NCBI GenBank assembly: GCA_963578825.1
Contig: CAUZDW010000015.1
Span: 6,703-70,702 of the forward strand
Direction: 5' to 3'
Length of the DNA stretch: 64,000 nucleotides
Source of the DNA: Vicinamibacteria bacterium
GTDB lineage: Bacteria; Acidobacteriota; Vicinamibacteria; Fen-336
The notes under the pieces were generated by a model. That model worked only from the letters and a program-made list of their open reading frames with translations, was not told the DNA's origin and ran no database searches. A program made the position numbers and the translations under genes. This document shows positions 6,775-62,860 of the stretch, piece by piece (within the stretch, counting starts at the first letter, position 1; the number at the start of each line of letters is the position of its first letter).

Positions 6775-8169
<1,395 letters not shown>

Positions 8170-8175
8170 GACGCA

Positions 8176-8526
8176 TCACAGCGCGTTCAGATCACCGTGT
8201 ACGGTCTCCCCCTCGAACAGGGTCAGAAGAACCCGGGTCTCGGAGATGTCGGCCGGATCGATCTCGAACACGTTTTGATCGAGATCGATCAGGTCGGCCA
8301 GTTTGCCGACCTCGATCGAACCGGTCCGGTCCTCGTGCTTGTTCAGGAATGCCGCATTGATGGTGAACGCGACCAGGGCCGCCAGCAGGCCGGCGAGGCT
8401 GAGGGGGGCCGAGGGCGTGGGCTTGCCCTTCGGCGAAAACGCCTGGACCAGGAGGACGACGAGGCCCGTCGCGGCCACGATCATCGCGGGGACGATCGGC
8501 CTGAGGTCCAGCTCGCCGCCGCTCAC
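8176..8526 (-). pseudogene. chimeric ORF: about 50 codons of the nuoN 5' end fused in-frame to about 65 codons of an amidohydrolase 3' end
   Basis: The start overlaps the nuoM stop by ATGA, as expected for nuoN, and MSGGELDLRPIVPAMIVAATGLVVLLVQAF is a NuoN-like first TM. The tail TINAAFLNKHEDRTGSIEVGKLADLIDLDQNVFEIDPADISETRVLLTLFEGETVHGD is the canonical amidohydrolase C-terminus. No further NuoN sequence occurs in any frame before convergent selA. Confidence 0.6.
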
Positions 8527-10061
8527 CGCTGCACCTCGCCGGGCACCGACTGCAGATCGGCGCCTGCGGCGGCAACCGACTTGGTCTTGTCATGCACTTG
8601 CAGGACGAGGGCGTCGGCCGCCGGCTCGATGCGCCTGGTGAAGTAGGGGCTGGCCACGCCCATGATGATCGCGAGGGCGACCAGGGGGACGAGGATCACC
8701 GCCTCACGAAGGCTGAGGTCCGAGAGCTTCCGGTTCTTCGGGTGGGTCACCTCTCCATGGAACACCCGCTTCACGAGCCACAGCATGTAGGAGGCCGCCA
8801 GGACGACGCCCAGAGAAGCGAACACCACGAGGGTCGGACTGAAGGGCCACGCCCCGACGAGGATCAGGAACTCGCCCACGAAGCCGTTGAAGCCGGGCAC
8901 GGCGATGGACGAGAGGCTGATCATCAGGAACACCGCCGCGTACCAGGGCATCACCGACTTGAGGCCGCCGAACTCCGAGATGAGCCGGGTGTGGCGCCGG
9001 TCGTAGAGCATCCCCACCAGGAAGAAGAGCGCCCCGGTGGAGATGCCGTGGCTCAGCATCTGGAAGACCGAGCCGACGAGGCTCGTGGTGGTGCAGGCGG
9101 CGATCCCGAGCATCACGAAGCCGAGGTGGGACACCGACGAGTACGCCACGAGCTTCTTCAGATCGGGCTGGACCAGCGCGACGAGGGCTCCGTAGAGGAT
9201 CCCGATGACGGCCAGAACGGCGATGAACGGGGCGAAGCGCATCGCCGCATCCGGGAAGAGAGGAAAGGCGATTCGCAGGAAGCCGTAGCCCCCCATCTTC
9301 AGCAGCACCCCAGCCAGGAGGACCGAGCCCGCCGTCGGCGCCTCCACGTGAGCATCGGGCAGCCACGTGTGGAACGGGAACATCGGGACCTTGATGGCGA
9401 AGGCCAGGGCGCAAGACAAGAAGAGCCAGGTCTGGATCGCCGGGTCCACCGGGACCGCCACGAGGGCGGCCAGATCGAAGGAGCGCACGCCGGCCACCCG
9501 GTACAGAACGAGGAAAGCGACCAGCATCACCACGCTGCCGGCAAAGGTGTAGAGAAAGAACTTCACGGCGGCGTAGATGCGCCGCTCGTGCCCCCAGACC
9601 CCAATGAGGAAGTACATCGGGATGAGCATCGCTTCCCAGAACACATAGAAGAGGAAGAGGTCGAGGGCCACGAAGACCCCGATCATCCCCGCCTCGAGCA
9701 ACAGCATGAAGATGATGAACTCGCGCACGCGCTTTGCGATGGAGCTCCACGACCCCAGGAGGGCCAGCGGCGTGAGGAAGGTGGCGAGTACGACGAGCCA
9801 CAGGGAAAGCCCGTCGATGCCCACGTGGTACGAGATCCCCCAGTCCGGAATCCACGGCGCCCGTTCCACGAACTGCATGCCCGCAACGTCCTCGAAACCG
9901 CGAACGAGGAGAAGCGACAGCCCGAAGCCCACGGTGGAGAAGACCAGGCCGAGAATCTTCTGCAGGGTCTTCGACTCGCGCCGGGTCACCGCGATGGCCA
10001 GCGCGCCCACCACGGGCAGGAGAATCAGGAGCGTGATCAGGTGTTGGTTCAGGACACTCAT
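8523..10061 (-). CDS. nuoM: NADH-quinone oxidoreductase subunit M
   Basis: 512 aa antiporter-like subunit. Motifs FELMLIPMYFLIGVWG, HTWLPDAHVEAPTAGSVLLAGVLLKMGGYG and KKLVAYSSVSHLGFV. Confidence 0.9.
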   Translation of the reverse strand: MSVLNQHLITLLILLPVVGALAIAVTRRESKTLQKILGLVFSTVGFGLSLLLVRGFEDVAGMQFVERAPWIPDWGISYHVGIDGLSLWLVVLATFLTPLALLGSWSSIAKRVREFIIFMLLLEAGMIGVFVALDLFLFYVFWEAMLIPMYFLIGVWGHERRIYAAVKFFLYTFAGSVVMLVAFLVLYRVAGVRSFDLAALVAVPVDPAIQTWLFLSCALAFAIKVPMFPFHTWLPDAHVEAPTAGSVLLAGVLLKMGGYGFLRIAFPLFPDAAMRFAPFIAVLAVIGILYGALVALVQPDLKKLVAYSSVSHLGFVMLGIAACTTTSLVGSVFQMLSHGISTGALFFLVGMLYDRRHTRLISEFGGLKSVMPWYAAVFLMISLSSIAVPGFNGFVGEFLILVGAWPFSPTLVVFASLGVVLAASYMLWLVKRVFHGEVTHPKNRKLSDLSLREAVILVPLVALAIIMGVASPYFTRRIEPAADALVLQVHDKTKSVAAAGADLQSVPGEVQR

Positions 10062-12031
10062 GACCAGAGGAGATAGCCCAGGAGCGCCACAGCTCCCGCG
10101 AGGATGAGCAGCACGTACTGGCGCACGAGCCCGGTCTGCAGCGGACCAAGCGTCGCCGCCAGGGCTTTCGTCATGGAGCCGGCACGATTGACGGCGCCGT
10201 CGATGAGGCGGGCGTCGATCTGCTCCCAGAGCAGGGCGCGGCTCCCGTCGATCACCACCCGCCGGACGAATGCGTTGTAGACGTCATCCCAGTAGTACTT
10301 CGCCGCGAAGATCCGGAGCGCGGGACGGAGCGAGGAGGCGATGCTCGCCCGGGCGCCGGGAAGGGCCAGGTAGAGGTAGTAGGCGATGAGGATCCCCGCG
10401 ATGGCGGTGAGAGTCGCCAGAACGGGCAGCCACGCGACGTGGGCGAGATGCCCGTCGCCCACGCGAAACACCGGTCCCACGATCTCCGGGATCGAGACGA
10501 GATGCCACCCCTCCGGCTGGCCCAACTCCCCCGGTCTCCCGGGCAGCGGTATCCCGAAGCCCCCCACCGCCGAGGCGATGGCGAGAAGCACGAGGGGCAC
10601 CACCATGAGCCACGGCGACTCGCGCACGTGGTGCTCGGCATCGTCCCCGCCACGGAAGGTCCCGAAGAAGGTCAGGAAGACGAGCCTGGCCATGTAGAAG
10701 GAGGTCAGGAGCGCGGTGAAGAGACCGATCCCGAAGAGCACGGGATGCCCGAGAGCGGCCGCGAGGATCTCGTCCTTGCTGAAGAAGCCAGCGAAGAACG
10801 GGATGCCTGCAATCGCCAGGGTCCCCACGAGGAACGTCCCGAACGTCCACGGAATCTTCGTCCTGAGGCCGCCCATCCTCGTCATGTCCTGCTCGCCGGA
10901 CATGGCGTGGATCACCGAACCCGAGCCGAGGAAAAGAAGAGCCTTGAAGAAGGCGTGGGTGTAGAGGTGAAAGACCCCCACGCCGAACGCGCCCATGCCG
11001 CACGCCAGGAACATGTAGCCGAGCTGGCTCACGGTGGAGTAGGCGAGGACCCGCTTGATGTCGGTCTGGACGAGAGCGATGGTGGCGGCCATGAGCGCGG
11101 TCGCGGCGCCCACGACCGCGACGGTCATCATCGCCGTTTCCGACACGTGATAGAGCGGGCCGAGCCGAGCCACCATGTAGACTCCGGCGGTCACCATCGT
11201 CGCGGCGTGGATCAGCGCCGAGACCGGCGTCGGGCCCTCCATGGCGTCGGGAAGCCAGACGTGGAGCGGGATCTGGGCGCTCTTGCCGGTCGCCCCGATG
11301 AACAGGAGGAGGCACGCGATCGTCGCGGGACCGAACTCCCACAGCCTCTCGGGAGCCAGCGAGCCGGCGTTGTCGGCGATGTCCACCAGGTCGAGGCTTC
11401 CGAAGGCGTGGAACATGAACGCCATGCCGAGGATGAGCCCCACGTCGCCGATGCGGTTCACGATGAAGGCCTTGAGGCCCGCGGCCGACGCGCTGTCCTT
11501 GCGGTACCAGAACCCGATCAGGAGGTAGGAGCACAGGCCCACCCCCTCCCACCCCACGAACATCAAGGGGAGGTTTCCGCCCAGGACCAGCAGGAGCATG
11601 AAGAACGTGAAGAGGTTGAGGTACGAGAAAAAACGGACCCGTTCCTCGTCGTGGGCCATGTAGCCCAGCGAGTAGATGTGGATGAGCGCGCCCACGCCGG
11701 TGACCACCAGGGTCATGAGCGAGGAGAGCGGGTCCACGAGAAGGCTGAACGGCACGCGGAAGCCCCCGGCCTCCATCCACTCGAACCCCAGATAGGGCTG
11801 GGAGAACCTCAGGCCCGTCGGGCCTGCCACCAGGCCGTAGAGCCGCGCCGTCGTCCAGGCCGAAAGGCCGAACGCGATGAGCACGGTGGCGCAGGCGAGC
11901 CACCCGGCGCCGCTCTCTTCCTTGTCCCTCTTGATCCAGTCCCCGAAGAGGGCCAGGACGACGAAGCCGAGAAGCGGCAAGAGAAGTACAGCGATGGGCA
12001 GAACGGTGTCGAGTTTGGTCAGCTCGAGCAC
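10058..12031 (-). CDS. nuoL: NADH-quinone oxidoreductase subunit L
   Basis: 657 aa. Motifs HVWLPDAMEGPTPVSALIHAATMVTAGVY and KRVLAYSTVSQLGYMFLA, with a long C-terminal extension typical of NuoL. Confidence 0.9.
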   Translation of the reverse strand: MLELTKLDTVLPIAVLLLPLLGFVVLALFGDWIKRDKEESGAGWLACATVLIAFGLSAWTTARLYGLVAGPTGLRFSQPYLGFEWMEAGGFRVPFSLLVDPLSSLMTLVVTGVGALIHIYSLGYMAHDEERVRFFSYLNLFTFFMLLLVLGGNLPLMFVGWEGVGLCSYLLIGFWYRKDSASAAGLKAFIVNRIGDVGLILGMAFMFHAFGSLDLVDIADNAGSLAPERLWEFGPATIACLLLFIGATGKSAQIPLHVWLPDAMEGPTPVSALIHAATMVTAGVYMVARLGPLYHVSETAMMTVAVVGAATALMAATIALVQTDIKRVLAYSTVSQLGYMFLACGMGAFGVGVFHLYTHAFFKALLFLGSGSVIHAMSGEQDMTRMGGLRTKIPWTFGTFLVGTLAIAGIPFFAGFFSKDEILAAALGHPVLFGIGLFTALLTSFYMARLVFLTFFGTFRGGDDAEHHVRESPWLMVVPLVLLAIASAVGGFGIPLPGRPGELGQPEGWHLVSIPEIVGPVFRVGDGHLAHVAWLPVLATLTAIAGILIAYYLYLALPGARASIASSLRPALRIFAAKYYWDDVYNAFVRRVVIDGSRALLWEQIDARLIDGAVNRAGSMTKALAATLGPLQTGLVRQYVLLILAGAVALLGYLLWS

Positions 12032-12032
12032 G

Positions 12033-12344
12033 CTATCCCTTCAAGAGGTTGAACGCGTCCAGGTCCAGCGTGTCCTTGTGCCGATCGAGCGCGATGACGA
12101 TGGCGAGCCCGACCGCCGCTTCCGACGCGGCCACCACCATGACGAAGAACACCAGGACCTGGCCGTCGAGAGTGCCGTGTGCCCGGCTGAACGCCACGAA
12201 GGCCAGGTTCACACCGTTCAGCATGAGCTCGATGCACATGAGCACGGTGATGACGTTGCGCCGGAGGAAGACGCCAAGGACACCGAGGGCGAAGAGAACG
12301 AGGCTCAGCAGGATCGCGTGGTGGACGAAGCCGGGACTCTCCAT
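12033..12344 (-). CDS. nuoK: NADH-quinone oxidoreductase subunit K
   Basis: 103 aa: [53 protein letters not shown] took the internal ATG at 12342-12344 as the start; the ORF track extends upstream into garbage. Confidence 0.85.
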
Positions 12345-12348
12345 GACG

Positions 12349-12843
12349 CTAGAGCTCCTTCTTCGCCAGCACCACTGCTCCCACGAGGGCAGCGAGGATG
12401 AGGATGGAGGTGGCCTCGAAGGCGTAGAGGAACTGCGGCGAGAAGAGGATCCGGGCCATCTCGACGGTCGAGGCATCGAAGCTCGGCGCCGGCGCCAGCT
12501 CGAAGCGCAGCAGGACCGTCCCCGCCTGGAGGACCAGGAGCGCCACCAGGGCCAGCGCCAGGCCACGCAGGGTACGCGCGCCTTCGCCGGGGCCGTCCTC
12601 CTCTCGTTTCACGTTCAGGAGCATCAGGACGAAGAGGAAGAGCACCATGATCGCGCCCGCGTAGACGATCACCTGCAGGACGGCGATGAAGGGCGAGCCC
12701 AGGAGCCCGAAGATGACCGCGACCGAGCAAAGGGTCACGATGAGGGCAAGGGCCGAGTACATCGGGTTGCGCTGGGAGATGACGACCACTGCCGAGGCGA
12801 CGGCGATGGCGGCGAAGGCGTAGAAGAGGATCGCGTCCATCAT
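12349..12843 (-). CDS. nuoJ: NADH-quinone oxidoreductase subunit J
   Basis: 164 aa: [72 protein letters not shown]. The start overlaps the nuoH stop by ATGA. No nuoI lies between nuoH and nuoJ. Confidence 0.8.
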
Positions 12844-13874
12844 CAACCCGAGATCGCCACCCAGGCGGCGAACACCATGACCCAGACGGCCACCAGCGGA
12901 ATCAGCACCTTCCACCCCAGGTGCATGAGCTGATCGTAGCGAAAGCGGGGCAGCGTGGCCCGCAGCCAGATGAAGACGAAGAGGAAGAAAGCGACCTTCA
13001 AGCCCCACCACACGAAGCCCAGGGGGAACCCGGCCAGGGTCTCCGGCATCCCGGGGATGCCCGAGTGCCAGCCGCCGAGGAAGAGGTTTGCGAGCAGCAC
13101 GGTCACGGTGATCATGTTGATGTACTCGGCCATCTGGATGAGCGCGAAGCGCATCGACGAGTACTCTGTGTGGAAGCCCGCCACGAGCTCGCTTTCGGCC
13201 TCGGGGAGATCGAAGGGGGTCCGGGCGACCTCCGCCGTGGCTGCGAGGACGTACACGAGGAAGGCGGGGAAATGCAGGAAGACGTTCCAGTTCAGGAACC
13301 ACCCCGACTGGTCTGCAACGATGTCGTTGATGCGGAACGACCGGGCGGCCATGATCAGGGTCACCCAGGAGAACCCCAGCGCGAGCTCGTAGGAGAACAT
13401 CTGAGCCGACGACCTGAGGCCGCCGAGGAGCGAGTACTTGTTGTTGGCGGCCCACCCTGCGATCACGATCCCATAGACCCCGATGGCCGTCACAGCTAAG
13501 ATGAAAAGCAGCCCCACCTCGATGTCGGCGATCTGGATCTGAAGCCTCCGGCCGAAGGCCTGGAAGGGCGGGCCGTACGGGATCACCGCCGTCGCCAGGA
13601 GCGCCGTCGCCACAGCCACCACCGGAGCCGCCAGAAAGGCCCACTTGTCGGCTGCCGCGGGCATCGCCTCTTCCTTGAAGAAGAGCTTGATCCCGTCGGC
13701 GACGGGCTGGAGGATGCCGAAGGGGCCGGTCCTGTTCGGGCCGAGCCGATACTGCATGAGGGCGAGGGTGCGCCGTTCGACCCACGTCATGAGCGAGAAA
13801 CCCCCGAGCAGCGCGCTGATCACGATGACGATGGTGACGACGGCGATCAGGAGCTCCTCGGCCAGGGATGTCAC
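12843..13874 (-). CDS. nuoH: NADH-quinone oxidoreductase subunit H
   Basis: 343 aa: MQYRLGPNRTGPFGILQPVADGIKLFFKEE...FDLPEAESELVAGFHTEYS, a canonical NuoH/ND1. Confidence 0.9.
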   Translation of the reverse strand: MTSLAEELLIAVVTIVIVISALLGGFSLMTWVERRTLALMQYRLGPNRTGPFGILQPVADGIKLFFKEEAMPAAADKWAFLAAPVVAVATALLATAVIPYGPPFQAFGRRLQIQIADIEVGLLFILAVTAIGVYGIVIAGWAANNKYSLLGGLRSSAQMFSYELALGFSWVTLIMAARSFRINDIVADQSGWFLNWNVFLHFPAFLVYVLAATAEVARTPFDLPEAESELVAGFHTEYSSMRFALIQMAEYINMITVTVLLANLFLGGWHSGIPGMPETLAGFPLGFVWWGLKVAFFLFVFIWLRATLPRFRYDQLMHLGWKVLIPLVAVWVMVFAAWVAISG

Positions 13875-15706
13875 GCGGGGACCGCCTTGCCCGTCCTGGC
13901 CCCGGCGCTGGCCTTCGCCTTCGCCTTTACTTCTTCAAAGGTGGGCGCCACCGACTTCCAGCAACGCTTCTCGCGAACGTGGTACTCGAACTCCTCCCGA
14001 AACTTCGTGAGCGACGACCGGGGAGGAGCGATTGCGGCGTCCCCGAACGGGCAGACCGTCTTTCCCGCGATCGAGTCCGTGATCTTCCAGAGAAGGTCCA
14101 GGTCCTTCTCCTCCGCCTCGCCCGCCTCGATTCGCTCGAGCAGCCGCAGCATCCAGCCCGTCCCCTCCCTGCAGGGGGAGCACTTGCCGCAGGACTCGTG
14201 CTTGTAGAAGTACGAGAGGTTCTTGGCCATCCACACCATGCAGGTGGAGTCGTCCATCACGATGGTCCCCGCCGAGCCGAGCATCGAGCCCGCTTTGGCC
14301 ACGCTGTCAAAGTCCATGGCGATGTCGATCTCGTCCGGCGTGAGGACCGGGGTCGACGAGCCCCCGGGAACCACCGCCTTGAGCTTGCGGCCGTTCCTGA
14401 GCCCCTGGGCGTATCCCTGATCGAAGATCAGGTCACGGAGGGTGATCCGCCCCATCGGGGCCTCGTAGCTTCCCGGACGCACGACGTGGCCGCTGATGGA
14501 GTAGAGCTTGGGTCCCCCGTTCTTCTCGGTCCCGTAGCTGGCAAACCACTCCGCCCCCCGCTCGAGGACGAGAGGCACGTTGGCCAGCGTCTCCACGTTG
14601 TTCACGATCGTCGGACAGCCGTACACCCCGACCACCGCCGGGAAGGGAGGCTTGATGCGAGGCTGGCCGCGCTTTCCTTCCAGGGACTCGATGAGGGCCG
14701 TTTCCTCGCCGCACTCGTACGAGCCGGCGCCGCGATGGACCCACACGTCCACGCCGGTGCCGAGCACGTTCTTGCCGACGATTCCCGCCGCCCGCGCCGT
14801 GGCGAGTTCCACGAGGGTGCGCGCACCCTCGTGGAACTCGCCACGGATGTAGATGTAGGCCGTCTTCGAACGGATCGCGTGGCACGAGACGACGATGGCC
14901 TCGATGAGCCGATGCGGGTCCCGCTCGAGGATCACGCGGTCCTTGTAGGTGCCAGGCTCGCTCTCATCGGCGTTGACGCAGAGATAGCGGGGCTTCGGGT
15001 TGTCCTTGGGCAGGAAGCCCCACTTCATCCCCGTGGGGAACCCGGCCCCTCCGCGACCGCGAAGGCCCGAGCGCTTGACCGTCTCGATGATGTCCCCGGG
15101 CTCCAGCTTCAGCCACTCGCCCAGCTTCGCGTAGCCCCCGGAGGCCTTGTACACGTCGATGGAGGTGGAGTTCTCCTTCCAGACGTTCTGAAAGAGGATG
15201 TGCTCGCCGGGGCTCTTCGGCCAGTCGAAGGTGCGCCGAACCGTCTCGCCGGCGAGGACGTGGTCGATGTCCGATTCCGAGGCGTGCTCGAGCCACTCGC
15301 CGTTCACCTGCACGGCCGGCGCCCCACCGCAGGCGGCGAGGCATTCGACCTCCTTGACCGTGAACTTCCCGTCCCCGGTGGTGCCCCCGGCTTCGATCCC
15401 GAGCTTGCGGCAGGCGTGCCCGAGGAGGCCCTCCGAGCCGCCGAGGGCACACGACAACGTGGTGCAGACCTCGATGAGGGTCTTTCCCTTCGGCTGGAGG
15501 TGGAACATCGTGTAGAAGCTGGCGGTGTCCTTCACCTGCGCGGGGCTCAGGTCCAGAAGCGTCCCGACGTACTCCATCGCCTCGGGGCTGATCCAGCCCT
15601 CCTGCTCCTGAACCAGCCGGAGCGCCGGCAGGAGGGCGGAGCGCTTCACCGGGTAGCGGGCGACGGTGTCCTCGAAGGTCTTCAGGTTGTCGGGGGTGAG
15701 CTCCAT
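13871..15706 (-). CDS. nuoEF: fused NADH dehydrogenase flavoprotein module, NuoE-like thioredoxin-fold [2Fe-2S] domain plus NuoF
   Basis: N-terminal 170 aa carry NuoE motifs CTTLSCALGGS...ECLAACGGAPAVQVNG. The same frame continues without a stop into NuoF: GRGGAGFPTGMKWGF, CNADESEPGTYKDR, ESCGKCSPCREGTGW. I took the start as the MELTPDNL ATG at 15704-15706, 4 nt after the nuoA stop. The stop overlaps the nuoH start by ATGA. Confidence 0.85.
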   Translation of the reverse strand: MELTPDNLKTFEDTVARYPVKRSALLPALRLVQEQEGWISPEAMEYVGTLLDLSPAQVKDTASFYTMFHLQPKGKTLIEVCTTLSCALGGSEGLLGHACRKLGIEAGGTTGDGKFTVKEVECLAACGGAPAVQVNGEWLEHASESDIDHVLAGETVRRTFDWPKSPGEHILFQNVWKENSTSIDVYKASGGYAKLGEWLKLEPGDIIETVKRSGLRGRGGAGFPTGMKWGFLPKDNPKPRYLCVNADESEPGTYKDRVILERDPHRLIEAIVVSCHAIRSKTAYIYIRGEFHEGARTLVELATARAAGIVGKNVLGTGVDVWVHRGAGSYECGEETALIESLEGKRGQPRIKPPFPAVVGVYGCPTIVNNVETLANVPLVLERGAEWFASYGTEKNGGPKLYSISGHVVRPGSYEAPMGRITLRDLIFDQGYAQGLRNGRKLKAVVPGGSSTPVLTPDEIDIAMDFDSVAKAGSMLGSAGTIVMDDSTCMVWMAKNLSYFYKHESCGKCSPCREGTGWMLRLLERIEAGEAEEKDLDLLWKITDSIAGKTVCPFGDAAIAPPRSSLTKFREEFEYHVREKRCWKSVAPTFEEVKAKAKASAGARTGKAVPA

Positions 15707-15710
15707 TGCG

Positions 15711-16061
15711 CTACCAGTCCATGGCTCCGACTCTCCATTCGTAGACGAAGCCGACACCGAGGACGAAGAAGAAGCCGCCCATGACGCTCAGGCCGTAGAC
15801 GCCCAGCTCGTCGAGGATGAGGGCCCACGGATAGAAGAAGGCCGTTTCCACGTCGAAGAGAATGAACAGCATGCACACGAGGTAGAACTTGACCGGGAAC
15901 CGCTCCCGGGCTGTCCCCACCGGGGGCACACCGCACTCGTACGTGCTCAGCTTCCCCTCGTCCGGACGAGGACGCCCCAGGAGGTTCGACATGGCCAGGG
16001 TGAAAACGCCGAAGCCGACTGCTACCGCGCCCAAGATCACGATCGGGAGGTAGCTGGGCAT
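15711..16061 (-). CDS. nuoA: NADH-quinone oxidoreductase subunit A
   Basis: 116 aa: YECGVPPVGTARERFPVKFYLVCMLFILFDVETAFFYPWA. First gene of the minus-strand operon; divergent from pyk. Confidence 0.85.
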   Translation of the reverse strand: MPSYLPIVILGAVAVGFGVFTLAMSNLLGRPRPDEGKLSTYECGVPPVGTARERFPVKFYLVCMLFILFDVETAFFYPWALILDELGVYGLSVMGGFFFVLGVGFVYEWRVGAMDW

Positions 16062-16264
16062 GGTCAGAGCGTCTGGCGATCGCGCGGAAGCGATCCTGTG
16101 TTATCGGTGAACGCCGGCGAGCAGGGACGGCAGTCGACGCCGGAATATAGCGTCCGGCCTCGCAGGGTGTCAAACCCCCCGATGGTCCAGATGCCCGCAA
16201 ATGCGTGTGAACAAGCGCCTCCCGACGATCGCGTGGCCGTGCTGGCTTATACTCGTCGCGACTC

Positions 16265-17673
<1,409 letters not shown>

Positions 17674-17677
<4 letters not shown>

Positions 17678-18120
17678 CGAAAACGCCCCGGGACCAGGCC
17701 TGTGTCGGGCGTTTTGGGGTCGCGACGGCGGCGGGGCTCGTCGTGACCCTGGCCCTTCTCTGCGCCTGCTCGCGCCATCCCGATCCCAAGAATTACAAGT
17801 TCCCACCAGCCGAGGCCCCGGCGGTGGGCACGACGGCGGAAGGAATTGCGTCCTGGTACGGTCCCGGCTACCACGGCAAGACCACGGCCAGCGGCGAGAG
17901 GTTCGACCAGGACGCCCTGACGGCCGCACACCCCTACTGGGCGTTCGGCACCCGGGTGAAGGTGACGCTGGTCTCCACGGGCAAGAGCACGGTGGTGCGC
18001 ATCAACGACCGCTTCCCGGCATACAAGGGGAGGCTCATCGACGTCTCCCGGGGCACTGCCAGGGAGATCGGGCTCATCGGGCCGGGCACGGGGACGGTGC
18101 GGCTCGAGGTGGTGCGGTAG
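17674..18120 (+). CDS. RlpA-like lipoprotein (double-psi beta-barrel, septal-ring lytic transglycosylase family)
   Basis: GTG start overlaps the pyk stop (GTGA). Signal peptide plus LLCAC lipobox. GIASWYGPGYHGKTTASGERFDQDALTAAHPYWAFGTRVKVT...VVRINDRFPAYKGRLIDVSRGTAREIGL is the RlpA DPBB signature. Confidence 0.7.
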
Positions 18121-18252
18121 GATCTCGACGTCCGCCTATCCTCTTTTTGGGGCTGCAGTTACCCGGTTGAGGGGCGATCGCCGCAGCCACGGGGAAAGTC
18201 CGCCACCCGGGGGGCGCAAAAGGTCTACACTGAGGCCCCCTTTCGAGGTCAC

Positions 18253-18956
18253 ATGCACAACGCATCCAGCCAAGGCCAGGTGATCCTGGACCGGGCCTAC
18301 GACGCCTTTTCCGGCAAGGGGCTCGTCTACCAGGGGATGGACCATCTCGTGGGCAGCCTGGCGGACATGCGCTGGAGCTGGACCTCGGGAGCCCGGGGAT
18401 GCTGGAGGACCTCCGGGAGTTCTGCGATCGAGTCGCCCGGCCCGAGATGCACCACGACACCGAGCATGTCTACACCTGCGGTGCGGGCCAGAACTCGTTC
18501 ACCGTGGATCCCTATGGTCGCCTCCAGATGTGCCAGCTCTCGCGCAAGAACTTCCATGATCTGAGCGAAGACACCTTCGCCAAGGGCTGGCACGAGCTGT
18601 TTCCGCGGCTGCGGGCCCGCACGTGGCAATCGAACGACACGTGCCGGACATGCAACCTGATGTCGCTCTGCGGAAGCTGCCCCGGCGCCGCAGAGATGGA
18701 GACGGGCGACCCCGAAGCCATCATCCCCGGTTTCTGCGAGGTCACGCACCTGCGGGCCTGGGCTGCGATGGGAGAAGGGAGCGGTCACAGAAGGGATGCG
18801 ACGTGCTGCCTGGGCGACGGGCACCTGGCAGCCCGCCCCGACGACGAGGTGGCGGCACGGCTGGGCGGGGGCTGCGGCTCGTGCGGTCACGCCTCGCCCG
18901 AACCGGAGGAGCGTCTGGTGAAGCTGGAGCGGCGACGCGCTCCGGCCCGTTCCTGA
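18253..18956 (+). pseudogene. radical SAM/SPASM peptide-maturase remnant; only the linker and SPASM domain survive, and there is an internal frameshift
   Basis: 18399-18956 encodes a complete SPASM/twitch domain: CGAGQNSFTVDPYGRLQMCQ...CRTCNLMSLCGSCPG...PGFCE, with 7 Cys. About 45 protein-like codons (QVILDRAYDAFSGKGLVYQGMDHLVGSLADM) lie upstream in another frame. No radical-SAM core (CxxxCxxC barrel) can fit, because the rlpA-like gene ends at 18120. Confidence 0.55.
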
Positions 18957-32670: not shown

Positions 32671-34197
32671 TCAATCCTTCAGCGGCTCGATCCACGGTGC
32701 AGCACCTAGGCGATGCGGCTCGGCGGCCAGGTCGACCTTGGGGTCGATCAAGCGCTGACGCTCCCGACCGTTCAGACTGACCTCGACGTTCGTCCGGACG
32801 CTCACACCCGGGTGGCCGCGCGCCTCCAGGTTCTGCGCCAGATGCCGGGCGAACTGGTGGATCATGTGGGGTCGCGTGGCCATCTTCCTGTACTGCCACC
32901 GTTCCAGCAGCTCCCTCGGATCGATCGTCCAGTTTCGCCCGCTCTTGGGATCCGTCACGCGGAACCTCGCCGTGCCTCTCTTGCTGCGCAGCTTCATGTG
33001 CCAGGAGAAGTTGTGACCCTCCTCCGTCCAGCTCACGGCGCCCGGAATGACGAAGTGGCGCAGAGGGATGACGACCTGCAGCGTGAACCAGACGACGACC
33101 AGCGCGCACGTCAGCCCGTGTCCAGTGGGCGCACCTCGCTCGAGCGTCGCTCCATCTCGGTCGAGGTCGCGGCGGGCGAGGTCGGGTGAGTGGCGTCGAG
33201 GGCTCGAGCGCTCGCCTGGCCCTTCCTTCCCTCGGAGCGCCGCGGCCGTGGTTGCCAGCCCTACGGGCACGAGCTCCAGCTCTTTCCGGAGCCAGGCGAC
33301 TGCCAAGCCCAGCGCCACGCCCCCCGACCAGGCGAACCGCGCCCTCGCATCCGGTGCCGCCTGAAGATCGCGGACCAGGCGGCGCGGCCAGTCAGGCGGG
33401 AAGAACAGCGTCGTGGCGGCGAGGGCCAGCCAGGGGAAGATCCCGATCGAGAACAAACGATCGTTCATGAGGTGGAACGACGTGACGAGCGCGAACATGA
33501 GCGGACGCGTCCGACGCCAGAGAAGCGCTGGGACAGCCAACAGATCCAGCAGCAGCCCCCCGTAGGCGAAGAGGTAGACGACCCACTCGTCGGTGAACAG
33601 CGGGCCGATCAGCGGGAAGCTGGCCCGCCTGGCCAGCCAGGTGCGGAGCGGCTCTCCGCCAAGCCAGTCGCCGTTGATCTTCGCGACGCCACCGAAGAAG
33701 TAGACAGATGCCCATCTGTCCGGCCAGCAGCACCGGGCCCCAGGCCGGGATCCGATCGGCCCTCAGCCGGGGGCGGATCAGCGCGTCCACCGAAACAGCG
33801 CGGTGGGCCGGCACGAAGATCATCAGGAAGCTGATCAGAATGACGAAGTAGAAGTGATTCAGGTACCGCGCCTGCTCGAGCAGGAAGACGTAGGTAAACC
33901 CCAGGAAGAAGAGCGCGGCGCTCAGTCGGTAGAGAAAGCCCAACATGATGAAGAGTGCGAGGGCGCCGAGCGCGTAGAAATGGACGTACATCCCGTCGCC
34001 CGACCACGGACGAACCCACTCGAAGAACGGGTAGGTGAAGTGGTAGCAGGGCTCGAGCCAGTAGCGCGCGATCCAATCGTGATCGAGGTAACGCTTTACC
34101 TCCCAGAGCATCACGAGCCCGAACGCCACGCGGAAGAAGACGACACTCGCGATGTCGACTGGGCGAAGGAGCGCGGCGGCCAGGCGATGGGACGTCA
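32671..34197 (-). pseudogene. HTTM domain protein (vitamin K-dependent gamma-carboxylase-like membrane protein), split by a frameshift
   Basis: The N-terminal frame (GTG at 34197) reads RPVDIASVVFFRVAFGLVMLWEVKRYL...VHFYALGALALFIMLGFLYR...PAWGPVLLAGQMGI. The C-terminal frame reads VYFFGGVAKINGDWLGGEPLRTWLARRASFPLIGPLFTDEWVVYLFAYGGLLLDLLAVPALLW...FHLMNDRLFSIGIFPW. The frames join at about 33695-33720 with a 1-2 nt indel. Confidence 0.7.
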
Positions 34198-42657: not shown

Positions 42658-42778
42658 CGCCCGAGTGTGGACCGCAAGACGGGCGCGATCAAGGGCTTGA
42701 CACGAGACCGCGCCGCACGGAGAGTTGGGGCGCTTTCCCAGTGAACGGCCCAATGGCATTGCCCCGCTGCTGCGCTCA

Positions 42779-44665
42779 ATGCGTCTCGCCGTCGGAGATC
42801 GGGAGAATCGCCTCTTGAACGAGCCCACGTTCCCCGACCTTCGCACCTTCATCGAGCAGCTGCGCAGCGACGGCCAGCTCGCCGTGGTCGATGCGGAGGT
42901 CGACGCGCGGCTCGAGGTGGCGGAGATCCATCGGCGGGTGATTGCTGCCGGTGGCCCGGCGCTCCTGTTCACCCGTGTTCGCGATGCAGAGATGCCTCTG
43001 GTCACCAACCTGTTCGGCACACCGCAACGAGCGGAGCGGGCCTTCGGGCGCCGACCCGGCCGCCTGATCCGCAGGCTCGTGGATGTGGCCGAAACGATGA
43101 TGCCGCCCACGCCCGGCAAGCTCTGGGGAGCCCGCGACCTGGCCCTCGAGGGGCTGCGGATCGGCCTCTCACGCCGGGGAAGCGGCCCGGTCACCGAGAT
43201 CGTCACGGACGACGTGCGCCTCGACCGCCTGCCCATCCTCACGTGCTGGCCCGAGGACGGAGGTCCGTTCCTGACCCTGCCACTCGTCTACACCGAGGAG
43301 CCCCAGCCCCTGGAGAGCGAAGCTGCAGGAGGGGGCAGCGCCCGGTCCCGGAGCAATCTCGGGATCTACCGCCTCCAGGTTCACGACTCGCGCACCACGG
43401 GGATGCACTGGCAGATCGGCAAGGGCGGCGGCTTCCACCATTCCGTGGCCGAGGGACGCGGGGAGGACCTCCCGGCAACCGTTTTCCTCGGCGGCCCGCC
43501 GGCGCTCATCCTTGCCGCGATCGCACCGCTTCCGGAGAACGTGCCCGAGGTCCTCCTGGCCTCTCTCATCGCCGGACGCCGCCTGGATCGGTGCCCCGGC
43601 CCGGGCCCCCATCCCCTCATCGCCAGCGCGGAAATGGCGCTGGTGGGCCACGTCCCCTCCGGGGTCCGGCAGCCCGAGGGGCCGTTCGGCGACCACTACG
43701 GCTACTACTCCCTTCGGCACGACTACCCCGTCTTCCGCATCGACCACCTGTGCCGGAGGCGGGACGCGATCTTTCCAGCCACGGTGGTGGGCAAGCCGCG
43801 ACAGGAGGACTTCTTCATCGGAGACCTGCTCCAGGAGCTTCTGTCGCCTCTGTTTCCCCTGGTGATGCCCGGGGTCGTCGACCTGTGGTCGTACGGCGAG
43901 ACCGGATATCACTCACTGGCGGCAGCGGTGGTCAAGGAGCGATACAAGCGCGAGGCCATGGTCTCGGCGTTCCGCATCCTCGGCGAGGGTCAGCTGTCGC
44001 TCACCAAGTTCCTGCTCGTGACGGATCGCCCGGTGGACCTCAAGGACTTCCGCGCGACCCTGGAGCACGTGCTCGCCCGCACGAGACCCGAGACCGATCT
44101 CTACGTCCTCTCCAACCTCTCGATGGACACCCTCGACTACACCGGACCGGTGGTGAACGAGGGGTCCAAGGGCGTGTGGCTCGGCCTCGGCGACCCGGTG
44201 CGAGAGCTGCCCAGGGAGTTTCACCCGCCGGTTGCACCGCCGGCCGAGGTGACCGATGTGCGTGTCTTCTGCGGTGGCTGCCTCGTGGTGGGCGGACCGT
44301 CGGCAGGCGAGGACCCGGGGGCGGCGGCGCGGCTCGCCCGGCATCCCGCCTTCGAAGGCTGGCTGTTGCTCGTTCTGACCGACGAGCCCAGGCGCGCAGC
44401 GGCCAGCCCGATGAGCTTCCTCTGGACGACCTTCACCCGCTTCGAGCCCGCGGCCGATCTGCACGCCGCCGCGACAAGCGTCGTGCGCCACCACATCGTC
44501 CATGAGCCTCCGGTCCTCATCGACGCCCGCCGTAAGCCGTCGTTCCCGAAGGAGGTGGCCTGCGATCCCCAAACGGCCGACCTCGTCACCCGTCGTTGGC
44601 GGGAGTACTTCCCGGACGGGGGTGTCGAGATGGGCGACTCGGAGGCGGCCCACGTGGGGCTCTAA
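42779..44665 (+). CDS. UbiD-family (prFMN-dependent) decarboxylase
   Basis: FPDLRTFIEQLRSDGQLAVVDAEVDARLEVAEIHRRV, then a conserved UbiD core (GIYRLQVHDSRTTGMHWQIGKGGGFH; E...GPFGDHYGYY). About 628 aa. Confidence 0.85.
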   Translation: MRLAVGDRENRLLNEPTFPDLRTFIEQLRSDGQLAVVDAEVDARLEVAEIHRRVIAAGGPALLFTRVRDAEMPLVTNLFGTPQRAERAFGRRPGRLIRRLVDVAETMMPPTPGKLWGARDLALEGLRIGLSRRGSGPVTEIVTDDVRLDRLPILTCWPEDGGPFLTLPLVYTEEPQPLESEAAGGGSARSRSNLGIYRLQVHDSRTTGMHWQIGKGGGFHHSVAEGRGEDLPATVFLGGPPALILAAIAPLPENVPEVLLASLIAGRRLDRCPGPGPHPLIASAEMALVGHVPSGVRQPEGPFGDHYGYYSLRHDYPVFRIDHLCRRRDAIFPATVVGKPRQEDFFIGDLLQELLSPLFPLVMPGVVDLWSYGETGYHSLAAAVVKERYKREAMVSAFRILGEGQLSLTKFLLVTDRPVDLKDFRATLEHVLARTRPETDLYVLSNLSMDTLDYTGPVVNEGSKGVWLGLGDPVRELPREFHPPVAPPAEVTDVRVFCGGCLVVGGPSAGEDPGAAARLARHPAFEGWLLLVLTDEPRRAAASPMSFLWTTFTRFEPAADLHAAATSVVRHHIVHEPPVLIDARRKPSFPKEVACDPQTADLVTRRWREYFPDGGVEMGDSEAAHVGL

Positions 44666-46442: not shown

Positions 46443-46642
46443 GAGGACAGTGTGACCTGATGCTCCCCGCAGGAAACTGCGGCAGGAACCCCCCGTGTCG
46501 GACAGGCGACTCCGGCCGGCCGCGACAGCCTATCACCTATCACCGCAGAGGCCTGGCGCGGCATGACAATTTTCGGGCTCGCCAGAAATCCGACGGGGTG
46601 GAGCCGGGTTGCCCGCGTCCGAAGCCTCGGCTACATTCGCTC

Positions 46643-46651
46643 AGGAGGAGG
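46643..46651 (+). promoter_or_regulatory. Shine-Dalgarno AGGAGGAGG 7 nt upstream of the VKOR–DsbA TTG start
   Basis: tcAGGAGGAGGtcgcttcTTG read directly at 46641-46661. Confidence 0.5.
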
Positions 46652-46658
46652 TCGCTTC

Positions 46659-48065
46659 TTGAAGACGCCCCATTTCACCCGCCTCGCGGCTGCGCTGGGT
46701 CTATGCCTGGCGGGCGCGGCGATCTCCGGCCTGCTCCTATTGCAGCACCACGGCGAAGGCCGGGCGGTGGCCGCGGTCGACCAGGTCTGCGGCGACAGCG
46801 CGGACGGACCCAGCGGCTGTGAGACGGTTGCCCAGAGCTCCTGGTCGTCGATCGCAGGCTTTCCCCTTGCGGGCCTCGGCCTGATCTTCTATCTGGCGCT
46901 GGCTCTCCTTCTCGCGCCGACTCTCCTGGTCTCGGGTGACCAACGGACAACGCTGTCGGGCTTCGTTGTGCTGGCCCTGGCCCTGGGTCTTCTCGTCGAC
47001 CTGCTGCTCCTGGGCGTCCAGGTTTTCGCCCTCGGAAGCTTCTGCATTCTGTGCGTCATCACATACGCCCTCAGCGCGGGCGCCCTCTTCGCGCTGCTGC
47101 CGGCCTGGCGCGGCGCTCTCGCCCCGGCGGCCGCGCTCGGGCACCGGGAGGGACGGCTGGCCCTGGCGGGCTGGGCGCTCGGTGCGGTGGCCGTCGGCGC
47201 GGCCGTCCTCGGGCTGGAAGCAACTCTCGACCACCGCGAAGCCGGGCGGCAGATGGCGCTCCTCGGGTCACCGGCGCCCGCTTCCAGGCCGGAGACCGAG
47301 TCCGAGGTGACGGCGTCTTCGAGCCAGGCTCTCACCCCGGCCCCGCCGTCACCAACCACCACCACCGCCCAGGCGGAGACAAGCGATTCGGAGCACTGGA
47401 AGCAGCGGGCCCAGGAGCTCCAGCAGACCCTCGACGATCCCCAGAAGCTGGAGCAGTACTTCTCGAAGAAGGCCCAGCGAGAGTACGACTCGGCCGCGGC
47501 GGAACCGATCGACCTGGAGAACGTGCCGGTGAAGGGCCCGCCGGAGGCGCCGGTGAAGATCGTCGAGTACTCCGACTTTCTGTGCCCCTTCTGCCGCAAC
47601 CTGGCCGCGGGGCTCTCGCAGTTCGTGCCCCAGGCGGGGGGGCGGGTGGCCGTCTATTTCAAGAACTATCCCCTCGACCAGGATTGCAACGAGAGCCTGC
47701 CCCGTTCGACCCATCCCGGCGCCTGCGACCTCGCCAGGGGCGCGATCTGCGCCCACAACCAGGGGAAGTTCGAGGCGTACCACGACCGCGTGTTCTCCGC
47801 AGAGGGCCTCCACGATCCCGGAGTCGCCGAGGTTGTCCGCCTGGCCGAAGAGGCAGGCCTCAACCCGGCGGCCATGCAGGGCTGCCTCGAGGACCCGGCG
47901 ACCGAGGACACCCTTGCCGCCCAGATCGCCGAGGCGCGTCGCCTGGACGTTCGGGCCACACCCACCCTCTACGTCAACGGGAAGAAGTTGCCGCGCATCA
48001 AGGACCTGATGCCCGTGGTGGACAGCGAAGCCCGGAAGAAGGGCTTCCCCCCGCTCAAACCCTAG
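46659..48065 (+). CDS. vitamin K epoxide reductase (VKOR) domain fused to a periplasmic DsbA-like thioredoxin domain
   Basis: VKOR half: loop cysteines CGDSADGPSGCE and active-site FCILCVITYA in a 4-5 TM core. C-terminal half: KIVEYSDFLCPFC plus TPTLYVNGK. A TTG start has a strong SD. Confidence 0.8.
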   Translation: MKTPHFTRLAAALGLCLAGAAISGLLLLQHHGEGRAVAAVDQVCGDSADGPSGCETVAQSSWSSIAGFPLAGLGLIFYLALALLLAPTLLVSGDQRTTLSGFVVLALALGLLVDLLLLGVQVFALGSFCILCVITYALSAGALFALLPAWRGALAPAAALGHREGRLALAGWALGAVAVGAAVLGLEATLDHREAGRQMALLGSPAPASRPETESEVTASSSQALTPAPPSPTTTTAQAETSDSEHWKQRAQELQQTLDDPQKLEQYFSKKAQREYDSAAAEPIDLENVPVKGPPEAPVKIVEYSDFLCPFCRNLAAGLSQFVPQAGGRVAVYFKNYPLDQDCNESLPRSTHPGACDLARGAICAHNQGKFEAYHDRVFSAEGLHDPGVAEVVRLAEEAGLNPAAMQGCLEDPATEDTLAAQIAEARRLDVRATPTLYVNGKKLPRIKDLMPVVDSEARKKGFPPLKP

Positions 48066-61020: not shown

Positions 61021-61157
61021 TCTGTCGCCCGGGCGGCGATGCGATATAGGATGCCCGGACGCAGATCGTTCCGAGGATATGCCCGACGGCGGAGGGGAGC
61101 ATGGCGGTCTATCGGCGAAAAGGTGGACGTCGCCGCCGCCGGAGAGACGCGGTCGCC

Positions 61158-62009
61158 GTGAGAGAGAGCTCGGGTCGATCCGAGAGGGCGCGGCAGCGCG
61201 AGCGGCAGCCGGTCCGGAGCGACACGACGATCCACGAGTGGCCCGAGGCCGGCCTCGTGCTGTTTCACGGACCGGCCGATCCCGAGGCGTCTGTCCGGGT
61301 CGAGTCCGGTCGGATCGTGGAGCTCGACGGCCGGAGCGAGGACGACTTCGATTCCCTCGATCGCTTCATTGCGCGCCACGCGATCGATCCGGAGGTGGCC
61401 GAGGAGGCCATGGCTCTCCCGCCGCTCGAGCTGGCACGACGACTCTTCGACCCGCACACCGACGCCTCCTCCGTGCGGCGGCTTTTCGGGGGACTGACGC
61501 CCGCCCGGCTCGTCGACGTGGTCTCGGAGCTCGACGTCCTCGAGATGATGCTGTCCGCGAGGAAGATGCGGCTCCGCAACCGGGTCGCCAACCAGGCCCA
61601 TGTCACCAACCTCCGCGACCACCCCGCCCTCCTCGCCGCGGACGCGGCTGAAGCCGCCCTCCGTGGCTTCGCCGAGGTCGAGACGACGGTCGGGGTGGCC
61701 GGTCTCACGCCGCTCAACGCGGTAGCGGTCCTGATCGGCTCGCAGGTGGGTCGCCCCGGGGTGCTGACCCAGGCGGCTGTCGAGGAGGGCGTCAACCTCC
61801 GACTGGCGATGAAGGGCCTGGTGAGCTACGCGGAGACGCTCTCCGTCTACGGCAACGAGGACCGCCGATCTGCTGACTGCCAATCAGCAGCGGCCTGGAA
61901 AGCTCCCTCCCTAGAGGAGCTTGCCGGGTGTGGTCACCGAATGGTCACCAGGAACTGGCTTCCGAAGCCCGGTTACGCGACTGGCACGCTTCCGCCCGTC
62001 GAGGGATGA
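61158..62009 (+). pseudogene. N-terminal about 45% of a coenzyme-B12-dependent diol/glycerol dehydratase large subunit (PduC/DhaB1-like); the rest of the gene is missing
   Basis: VELDGRSEDDFDSLDRFIARHAIDPEVAEEAMAL...RLVDVVSELDVLEMMLSARKMRLRNRVANQAHVTNLRDHPALLAADAAEAALRGFAEVETTVGVAGLTPLNAVAVLIGSQVGRPGVLTQAAVEEGVNLRLAMKGLVSYAETLSVYGNE is collinear with PduC residues about 45-260. Similarity stops at about 61860 and the frame terminates at 62009. No medium or small subunit genes follow. Confidence 0.7.
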
Positions 62010-62860
62010 TGGATCGCATGCCTGAGCCGATCGTCGAGCTCCTCAGAGAGGCCCAGAGAATCCTCGTTTTCACGGGAGCCGGAATCTCCACTGGAAGTGG
62101 CATCCGCGACTTCCGGGGGCCGAAGGGCGTCTGGAAGACGCGGCAGCCGGTGTACTACGAGGCGTTCCTGAGCTCCGAGGCGGCGCGGGTCGAGTACTGG
62201 GACCAGAAGCTCGAGGCGTGGCCGTCGTTTCGAGACGCCGAGCCCAACGCGGCCCACCGGGCCGTGGCGGCTCTCGAGGAGAAAGGCAAGCTCCTCTCGC
62301 TCGTCACGCAGAACATCGACGGGCTCCACGCCGCGGCCAGCATCTCTCCCGAAAAGCTGGTGGAGATCCACGGCACGAACCGCCAGGTCCAGTGCGTGTC
62401 CTGCGGCGAGCGCACCGATCCCGAGGCGCACATGGAGAGCTTCGCCGAAACGCGAACGCCGCCGCTGTGTCCGTGCGGTGGATACCTGAAGCCAGCGACG
62501 ATCAGCTTCGGCCAGAGCCTGCGGCCTGACGACCTTCAACGGGCGAGCGCGGCGGCCGGAGCCTGCGACCTCGTCGTCGCTCTCGGCTCCACTCTGTCTG
62601 TCCACCCGGCGGCATCTTTCCCACTGGCGGCAGCCGAGAGAGGGGTGCCGTACGTGATCATCAACCGCGGCGCGACCGACCACGACTCCCACCGCGCCGT
62701 GACGCTGCGCCTGGAAGGCGACGTGGTGGAGTTGTTCCCGCCGGCGGTGGAGGCGGCCCTGATCGTCCATTGCCCCCCCCACCCTAACGACAGCCCCATG
62801 AGGACCCCGCCGGGACGAAGGACAAGCCGGGGGACGACCGGGAAATCGGTGCGCCGCTAG
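62006..62860 (+). CDS. cobB: NAD-dependent protein deacylase, Sir2 family
   Basis: VFTGAGISTGSGIRDFRG and LVTQNIDGLH, plus a Zn ribbon CVSCGER...CPCGG. The ATG overlaps the stop of the dehydratase fragment. Confidence 0.85.
   Translation: MMDRMPEPIVELLREAQRILVFTGAGISTGSGIRDFRGPKGVWKTRQPVYYEAFLSSEAARVEYWDQKLEAWPSFRDAEPNAAHRAVAALEEKGKLLSLVTQNIDGLHAAASISPEKLVEIHGTNRQVQCVSCGERTDPEAHMESFAETRTPPLCPCGGYLKPATISFGQSLRPDDLQRASAAAGACDLVVALGSTLSVHPAASFPLAAAERGVPYVIINRGATDHDSHRAVTLRLEGDVVELFPPAVEAALIVHCPPHPNDSPMRTPPGRRTSRGTTGKSVRR

Follow-up and report, generated by a model that had tools for sequence, protein, structure and literature searches.

The stretch of DNA analysed here (the window, 64,000 nucleotides (nt) long, about 68% G+C) comes from contig CAUZDW010000015.1 of a Vicinamibacteria bacterium, phylum Acidobacteriota. 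It carries on its minus strand an operon for subunits of respiratory complex I. Gene identities were assigned through Pfam and NCBIfam profile searches of the minus-strand open reading frames (ORFs) at 8176-16061, and they give the order nuoA, fused nuoE-F (nuoEF), nuoH, nuoJ, nuoK, nuoL, nuoM and then an ORF of 116 amino acids (aa) at 8176-8526 (Table 1). The operon is flanked by a divergent pyruvate kinase gene and a convergent selA. The initial annotation had read nuoA-EF-H-J-K-L-M-N', and this order was recovered with both profile collections; its last gene, however, is a NuoN::amidohydrolase chimera and not merely a short nuoN. The Pfam scores of NuoA, NuoH, NuoJ and NuoK all exceed the gathering score. 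Curated NCBIfam cut-offs are exceeded by NuoF (TIGR01959, 582 bits against a cut-off of 559), NuoE (TIGR01958, 153 against 142), NuoH (NF004741, 332 against 305), NuoL (NF005141, 743 against 556), NuoK and NuoM; NuoA and NuoJ match the equivalog models below their cut-offs. In the fused protein the NuoE part covers approximately residues 1-165 and the NuoF part approximately residues 171-590.

Table 1. Genes and sequence features of the complex I operon, in window coordinates.
Feature	Position	Strand	Size	Remarks
Candidate sigma70-like promoter	16144-16173	-		TTGACA-18 nt-TATATT, about 80 nt 5' of the nuoA ATG; consensus match only
nuoA	15711-16061	-	116 aa	First operon gene; Pfam Oxidored_q4, 117 bits
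nuoE-nuoF fusion	13871-15706	-	611 aa	Pfam domains 2Fe-2S_thioredx, Complex1_51K, SLBB and NADH_4Fe-4S
Perfect palindrome	14797-14846		50 nt	25-nt arms, no spacer; inside the NuoF coding part
nuoH	12843-13874	-	343 aa	GTG start; Pfam NADHdh, 400 bits
nuoJ	12349-12843	-	164 aa	Pfam Oxidored_q3; same 164-aa gene call in assembly L005
nuoK	12033-12344	-	103 aa	Pfam Oxidored_q2; NCBIfam NF004320, 116 bits against a cut-off of 57
nuoL	10058-12031	-	657 aa	GTG start; Pfam Proton_antipo_N and Proton_antipo_M
nuoM	8523-10061	-	512 aa	Pfam match; TIGR01972, 615 bits against a cut-off of 264
nuoN remnant	8350-8526	-	59 codons	First 59 codons of the gene; GTGA overlap with nuoM
3' end of a YtcJ-like amidohydrolase gene	8176-8349	-	57 codons + stop	In frame with the nuoN remnant; Pfam Amidohydro_3

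The genes of the operon are packed very closely. The nuoA stop codon is separated from the nuoEF start by 4 nt, the J/K gap also measures 4 nt, and the K/L gap a single nucleotide. The remaining junctions are overlaps: GTGA at EF/H, where the GTG start of nuoH lies on the nuoEF stop codon, a 1-nt overlap at H/J (TGATG, the nuoJ ATG together with the nuoH stop codon), ATGA at L/M and GTGA at M/N'. The tightness described in the initial annotation is therefore real, all junctions being overlaps or gaps of at most 4 nt, but the EF/H, H/J and M/N' overlaps are not of the ATGA type that it had named. The promoter candidate in front of nuoA matches 11 of 12 consensus positions and is the sole promoter-like match in 7900-16400; shuffled sequence yields 0.6 such matches on average. 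We infer that nuoA-M would be co-transcribed as one unit.

The genes nuoB, nuoC, nuoD, nuoG and nuoI are missing from this locus. The E. coli proteins NuoB, NuoCD, NuoG and NuoI (NC_000913.3), used as tblastn queries, gave no match in the 64-kb window at E<=0.01, and Pfam scans of the remaining large window ORFs detected unrelated functions and no further nuo genes. Nor were the five genes found within 10 kb past either window end, a total of about 84 kb; these extensions were made on contigs of the same organism reached through exact-protein look-ups of the end genes, and the negative covers tblastn and the Pfam families listed for called genes. The initial annotation had reported the five genes as lacking at the operon, and on this point it proved correct; it had also considered that they might lie immediately adjacent, and none was seen in the window or in the 10 kb on either side of it.

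The same layout recurs widely among relatives. Some 60 related loci with NuoEF at least 63% identical to that of the window carry the same order, one of them in the NCBI metagenome-assembled genome (MAG) GCA_035542035.1, which bears the name 'Vicinamibacteria bacterium'. When metagenomes were scanned with NuoEF, 80 loci came back, and all scan loci above this identity read A-E-F-H-J-K-L-M-N and never contain B, C/D, G or I by local tblastn. The 10 kb on either side of the operon are free of nuoB, C, D, G and I in every one of the roughly 60 related loci. The layout is kept in a relative with 88% NuoEF identity. Homologues of NuoEF abound; the best 120 are all at least 76% identical, and NCBI names are attached to two of them, 'Acidobacteria bacterium' to one and 'Vicinamibacteria bacterium' to the other. 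In GCA_035542035.1 and on three contigs of 541 kb (ERZ25039514 contig_70603), 1.46 Mb (ERZ25039533 contig_39064) and 18.8 kb, nuoA-EF-H-J-K-L-M-N is followed by a convergent selA, which comes directly after nuoN or beyond one peptidase M23 gene; pyruvate kinase lies upstream on the three contigs and not in GCA_035542035.1.

Gene spacing was counted over scan loci and looked-up loci together, with extrapolated gaps. NuoA adjoins nuoEF in 54 loci (gap 3-74 nt), nuoEF adjoins nuoH in 54 (gap at most 302 nt) and nuoH adjoins nuoJ in 45 (gap at most 72 nt), so that nuoBCD, nuoG or nuoI would not fit in between. Both the recurrence of the nuoA-EF-H-J-K-L-M-N cluster, which the initial annotation had proposed to look for, and the small gaps uphold its view that this is an evolved arrangement and not the result of recent random deletion. 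The E-F fusion is present in 49 of 49 related loci having full coverage. As a marker of the reduced operon it was rejected, since some complete operons also have the fusion.

The odd gene content is the only thing that speaks for an assembly artefact, namely a chimeric contig uniting two partial nuo loci, which the initial annotation had named as a danger. Assemblies made independently of each other, from short reads as well as from long reads, show the order in many samples and databases. The nuoA-EF-H junctions occur again in L001, the part from nuoL/M to selA in eleven more assemblies, and the whole stretch in assembly L005, which is 100% identical save for a 49-nt deletion. An identical NuoEF with the A-EF-H-J order stands on an independent 4.7-kb contig, and the roughly 60 related loci share the order. 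The chance that the contig is a chimera is negligible.

What kind of proteins does the operon encode? Conservation was scored at positions at least 95% conserved in lineages whose operons retain the quinone module (Q-module). The window keeps 15/15 such positions in NuoA, 54/58 in NuoH, 12/13 in NuoJ, 13/14 in NuoK, 122/122 in NuoL and 36/37 in NuoM, and across the Vicinamibacteria clade the same positions are kept at 90-100%. In NuoEF the cysteines of cluster N1a (C81, C86, C122, C126) and of cluster N3 (C506, C509, C512, C552), the glycine-rich loop for flavin mononucleotide (FMN), the NADESEPGT motif and the YECGEETAL motif are all invariant (alignment A2). Among PDB structures, NuoF is matched best by complex I chains from M. 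smegmatis (8e9g) and T. thermophilus (2fug), and NuoH by 8e9g_H and 4he8_H from the same two species. The ORFs of nuoL and nuoM score far higher on NuoL/NuoM models than on Mrp models. Pairwise ratios of nonsynonymous to synonymous substitution (dN/dS) range from 0.06 to 0.4. Judged by sequence comparison, every subunit of the operon is an orthologue of its canonical complex I counterpart and is kept by purifying selection.

In complex I, cluster N3 of NuoF hands its electrons only via NuoG, NuoI and NuoB to the quinone at the NuoD/NuoH interface. The initial annotation had stated that NuoEF without NuoB, NuoD, NuoI and NuoG has no iron-sulphur path to quinone, which agrees with the established structures. 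It had left two options, that the missing genes are encoded elsewhere or that the operon specifies an undescribed module. The canonical nature of the encoded subunits, together with the structural path from N3 to quinone and the graded series of acidobacterial operons considered below, favours the first; the second has gained no positive support. In that second option, the membrane arm and NuoEF would form a new respiratory or ion-pumping module without canonical Q-module and NuoG. The absence of B, C, D, G and I within 10 kb in about 60 loci and over about 84 kb in this organism agrees with it, as do the age of an arrangement that has been selected and a divergence of some 50% between this clade and all other complex I. 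The proteins themselves point the other way. NuoH and NuoA keep positions that are near-universal in Q-module enzymes; NuoF and NuoE retain all cofactor motifs of the NADH module (N-module), which in all solved structures passes its electrons to NuoG; and established structures offer no iron-sulphur route from N3 to the membrane that lacks G, I and B. Moreover, other Acidobacteriota, including an aerobic isolate, hold nuoB and nuoI off the operon. A new module is therefore very improbable, and we give equally little credence to its variants, which invoke a novel docking of NuoEF, a non-homologous connecting module, or separate new roles for NuoEF and for the arm.

How could a layout of this kind have arisen? 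Loci whose NuoEF is 47-54% identical to that of the window sit in fuller operons, and these form a graded series, in which the named organisms come from a GTDB genome sample retrieved with a NuoD alignment. Complete A-B-C-D-E-F-G-H-I-J-K-L-M(-N) operons are found in Chloroflexota, Actinomycetes, Planctomycetota and Geobacteraceae. From the operons of Pyrinomonadaceae L140 and L170, and from that of L162, nuoI alone is missing. Both nuoB and nuoI are missing in L076, L080, L083, L086, L090, L095, L097 and L099, and also in several of L141-L165 and in many Terriglobia, among which is the cultured Acidipila rosea DSM 103428 (L148). The L076 type is Polarisedimenticolia-like, and the Latescibacterota MAG L144 is likewise without nuoB and nuoI in its operon. 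Hausmann et al. 2018 (ISME J) mention 'nuoACDHJKLMN operons', one including nuoEFG, and in their Supplementary Table S2b the locus-tag prefix of nuoB and nuoI differs from that of the nuoACD(EFG)HJKLMN operon genes. An operon lacking nuoB and nuoI in a genome that keeps them has been documented only for these Terriglobia MAGs (Hausmann et al. 2018). Operons of this kind are widespread in Acidobacteriota, but the literature mentions them only in passing.

Some loci of the collection are split or doubled in other ways. In L093 (36% G+C, 235-kb contig) the genes nuoB-C-D-E-F-G-I, with nuoE and nuoF separate, occupy 7665-13988, with no membrane subunits within 10 kb. In L085 a second B-C-I-like-D gene set comes right after nuoH-nuoI (15384-18425). 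Verrucomicrobiota L100, L102, L105, L106, L107 and L111 have NuoD genes without any other nuo gene within 10 kb, with the exceptions that L100 adjoins nuoE and L107 is only a 4.4-kb contig; these lone NuoDs are among the best matches to NuoD of the L076 type (60-65% identity), and other Verrucomicrobiota loci in the same sample are near-complete nuo operons.

Given these operons without nuoB and nuoI in other Acidobacteriota, an aerobic isolate among them, the absence of a gene from the operon says little about its absence from the genome. Vicinamibacteria stand at the far end of this tendency of peripheral-arm genes to leave the operon and stay in the genome, which is the main reason for reading the missing genes as encoded elsewhere and not as absent. 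We consider it quite probable that this is the main complex I operon of a Vicinamibacteria member in a lineage-typical split layout, with the Q-module and NuoG encoded at other places in the genome. One transcription unit would then supply the complete membrane arm (NuoA, H, J, K, L and M, joined in relatives by N) and the fused NuoE-F, while NuoB, C, D and I, with the quinone site and clusters N2 and N6a/b, and NuoG, with N1b, N4 and N5, would come from one or more other loci. The products of the separate loci would assemble into a normal L-shaped complex I, in which electrons would pass from NADH through FMN, N3 (NuoF), NuoG, NuoI and NuoB to quinone and would drive proton pumping by NuoH/A/J/K and the antiporter-like subunits. 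The layout may have originated as the end of the series that runs from Pyrinomonadaceae without nuoI through Terriglobia without nuoB and nuoI to Vicinamibacteria, which are also without nuoC, nuoD and nuoG.

The operon could also be a second, partial nuo copy, an additional membrane arm with the tip of an N-module, that borrows the Q-module and NuoG from a complete nuo operon in the same genome. Several nuo operons per genome have been reported in other Acidobacteria (Hausmann et al. 2018), and in L085 two sets of Q-module genes adjoin each other. Yet among the matches listed no named homologue of the L076-type NuoD is labelled Vicinamibacteria, and the fetched Vicinamibacteria loci, of which 10 kb on each side were visible, contain no second cluster of NuoH, NuoL and NuoM paralogues. 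We hold a second copy to be unlikely.

At its 3' end the operon of this organism departs from that of its relatives. In the 116-aa ORF, residues 1-59 are the N-terminus of NuoN and residues 60-116 the C-terminus of an Amidohydro_3 protein, which corresponds to positions 409-472 of the 472-position profile. The NuoN remnant is 60-79% identical over 29-55 residues to 12 related loci (e.g., L002, L003, L024, L092) and 45-55% identical to NuoN of three further loci. Full NuoN in relatives measures 481-484 aa, and a full nuoN is present in 16 of 16 related loci that extend this far. The stop codons of the stub and of the convergent selA are 6 nt apart. An identical 116-aa ORF in the same nuoM/selA context was found in at least ten assemblies from ENA, JGI, Logan and NCBI: ENA ERZ27247690, ERZ27247695 and ERZ27247711; Logan SRR9039920, SRR9039929 and SRR9039963; JGI 3300031803; and two NCBI MAGs; the contigs of 3300031804 and 3300060026 stop inside the ORF. 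The identity of the stub across assemblies shows that it is not an assembler artefact. The window population is near-clonal: over about 10.9 kb, one contig end set aside, a single mismatch was counted, and some of these sequences may derive from the same read sets. The contig end in question, L009:1-150 (contig k141_331808, window ~10916-11051), has 42 differences from the window against one in the remaining 10.9 kb, and is probably contig-end noise or a strain join.

For the amidohydrolase tail, the best database matches reach only 79% identity; they come from partial YtcJ-like genes that sit at the ends of contigs, in unrelated surroundings. In the relative whose NuoEF is 88% identical, nuoN and selA have no amidohydrolase gene between them. 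Neither comparison points to a donor of the tail, and the event therefore went beyond a simple local deletion. A deletion or replacement would have removed nuoN from about codon 60 onwards, leaving the in-frame NuoN::amidohydrolase stub. As far as the assembled sequences go, this population is without an operon-encoded NuoN. The lineage has the three antiporter-like subunits of complex I, but the operon of this organism has NuoL, NuoM and a NuoN remnant. Either NuoN is supplied from another locus, or complex I function was lost too recently for nuoA-M to decay. That the organism runs a complex having two antiporter-like subunits and no NuoN is a further reading, and a very improbable one.

A second unusual mutation lies in nuoF. 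At the palindrome listed in Table 1 relatives hold only an 18-nt palindromic core, GAGGGTGCGCGCAC(C/A)CTC, and the window sequence has its right arm converted into the complement of the left one. This turns the conserved peptide TLE[K/T/Q]AL[A/T]EA into TLVELAT-A, with one codon lost. The palindrome looks like the signature of a template-switch (quasi-palindrome) mutation. The deletion that distinguishes the otherwise identical assembly L005 falls at this palindrome and frameshifts nuoEF.

Is the operon then already decaying? Loss of nuoN may have inactivated complex I in this organism and made nuoA-M pseudogenes in waiting. The cut of nuoN to 59 codons joined to an amidohydrolase tail would fit this, as would the palindrome, which rewrites a conserved helix of NuoF and is accompanied by a frameshifting deletion in one assembly. 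On the other hand, nuoA-M are free of stop codons and frameshifts in the window. There is no excess of private window changes at sites invariant in relatives, dN/dS of pairs with the window is not raised even against the closest relative, L020, and no signal of relaxed selection in the window lineage was obtained from these two measures. The near-clonal population leaves the decay test with little power and is too clonal for a polymorphism test. A decaying, non-functional operon is a real possibility, short of an even chance; it bears on this organism only, and not on the conserved layout.

Several points weigh against the reading as a lineage-typical split operon of an ordinary complex I. The five missing genes were not found, so that we infer their presence elsewhere in the genome. 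No Vicinamibacteria NuoD was retrieved from the genome collection or the protein databases. The NuoD of L076, the closest one of the complete type, has its best 120 matches, each at least 78% identical, in Polarisedimenticolia and unclassified Acidobacteria, and no named one is labelled Vicinamibacteria. The best 80 of 600 matches in a scan of genome contigs with the NuoD alignment comprise Verrucomicrobiota, Terriglobia and others, and no Vicinamibacteria. Representatives at 50% identity, also searched for NuoD, form a library too coarse for isolating the Vicinamibacteria clade; the plasmid collection gave no acidobacterial match, and our literature searches gave no account of nuo gene organisation in Vicinamibacteria. 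Compared with any complete-operon lineage, the subunits of Vicinamibacteria reach only about 50% identity. For this reason no query ranks the Q-module proteins of the clade among the listed matches; at the same time, the clade is a long isolated branch that could differ in more than gene order. Finally, nuoN has been destroyed in this organism, so that the function of the complex here is uncertain.

If the operon is split as we suppose, a single tightly coupled message yields the membrane arm plus the outer end of the NADH module, and other loci provide NuoG and the quinone module. The Vicinamibacteria rank among the most abundant bacteria in soil. Their layout is a natural experiment on the extent to which the assembly of complex I requires gene order and co-translation, and the graded series gives a rare view of the stepwise break-up of an operon, first of nuoI, then of nuoB and nuoI, then of nuoB, C, D, G and I. 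Two concrete mutations in a natural population, the stub of nuoN and the palindrome of nuoF, could show whether complex I is dispensable here. There are practical consequences for annotation as well: a published genome-mining rule scores complex I only if the nuo genes are colocalised (PMC4453560), and colocalisation rules and operon-based annotation may miss or misclassify the Vicinamibacteria clade. The view of how complex I works is unchanged.

A few other genes of the window deserve a brief record. An ORF at 61050-62009 (plus strand), beside a SIR2 gene (61877-62860), matches only positions 2-230 of the 552-position profile of the diol/glycerol dehydratase large subunit and seems to be one more truncated gene; assemblies L180 and L181 contain the same call of 302 aa. 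A protein with HTTM and vitamin K-dependent gamma-carboxylase lumenal domains is encoded at 32671-33762 (minus strand), a VKOR-DsbA fusion protein at 46461-48065 (plus strand), and a UbiD-family decarboxylase at 42701-44665.

How does the operon compare with known systems? The canonical 14-subunit complex I of E. coli, T. thermophilus and M. smegmatis has orthologues of its NuoA, E, F, H, J, K, L and M, which are 29-46% identical to their E. coli counterparts and find their best PDB matches in chains of 8e9g and 4hea/2fug. The N-module flavoprotein NuoE/NuoF is there with its FMN and NADH motifs and its N1a and N3 cysteines. The differences from the canonical system are that nuoB, C, D, G and I are absent from the operon, that nuoE and nuoF are one gene, and that nuoN is a stub. 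A single nuoA-N operon, which is a typical and not an obligatory trait of the 14-subunit enzyme, is thus not found here. In Rhodothermus marinus (nqo operons) and Aquifex aeolicus the complex I genes are distributed over several loci and a normal enzyme is made. The splits in Rhodothermus, Aquifex and L093 differ from the present one, in which the N-module flavoprotein goes with the membrane arm and not with the rest of the peripheral arm.

The 11-subunit complex I-like enzymes (NDH-1, Fpo-like, Nuo11) lack NuoEFG (PMC3144371). They represent the opposite subset, because they keep B, C, D and I without an N-module, whereas the operon described here keeps E and F without a Q-module. Diaphorases of the HoxF/FdsB type have the same fused domain order as NuoEF, and 5xf9_A and 7e5z_B align to its residues 25-577 and 10-569, respectively. 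In contrast to these, the window NuoEF scores higher to NuoF of complex I, passes the NuoF equivalog cut-off and is encoded between nuoA and nuoH. A cation/proton antiporter of the Mrp type does not fit either, given that NuoH, A, J and K are present and that L and M fit the NuoL/NuoM models better.

The closest parallel is with the acidobacterial nuoACD(EFG)HJKLMN operons. They belong to the same phylum, and in them, too, peripheral-arm genes have gone from a collinear, tightly packed operon; some acidobacterial reduced operons (L080, L082, L084, L086, L089, L172) also share the fused nuoEF. Subunit identity between Vicinamibacteria and this group is about 45-55%. The acidobacterial nuoACD(EFG)HJKLMN operons retain nuoC, nuoD and nuoG, whereas NuoEF is the sole peripheral-arm product of the Vicinamibacteria operon. 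The latter is a conserved gene-order variant of an ordinary enzyme, not described in the literature searched and continuous with a known acidobacterial tendency.

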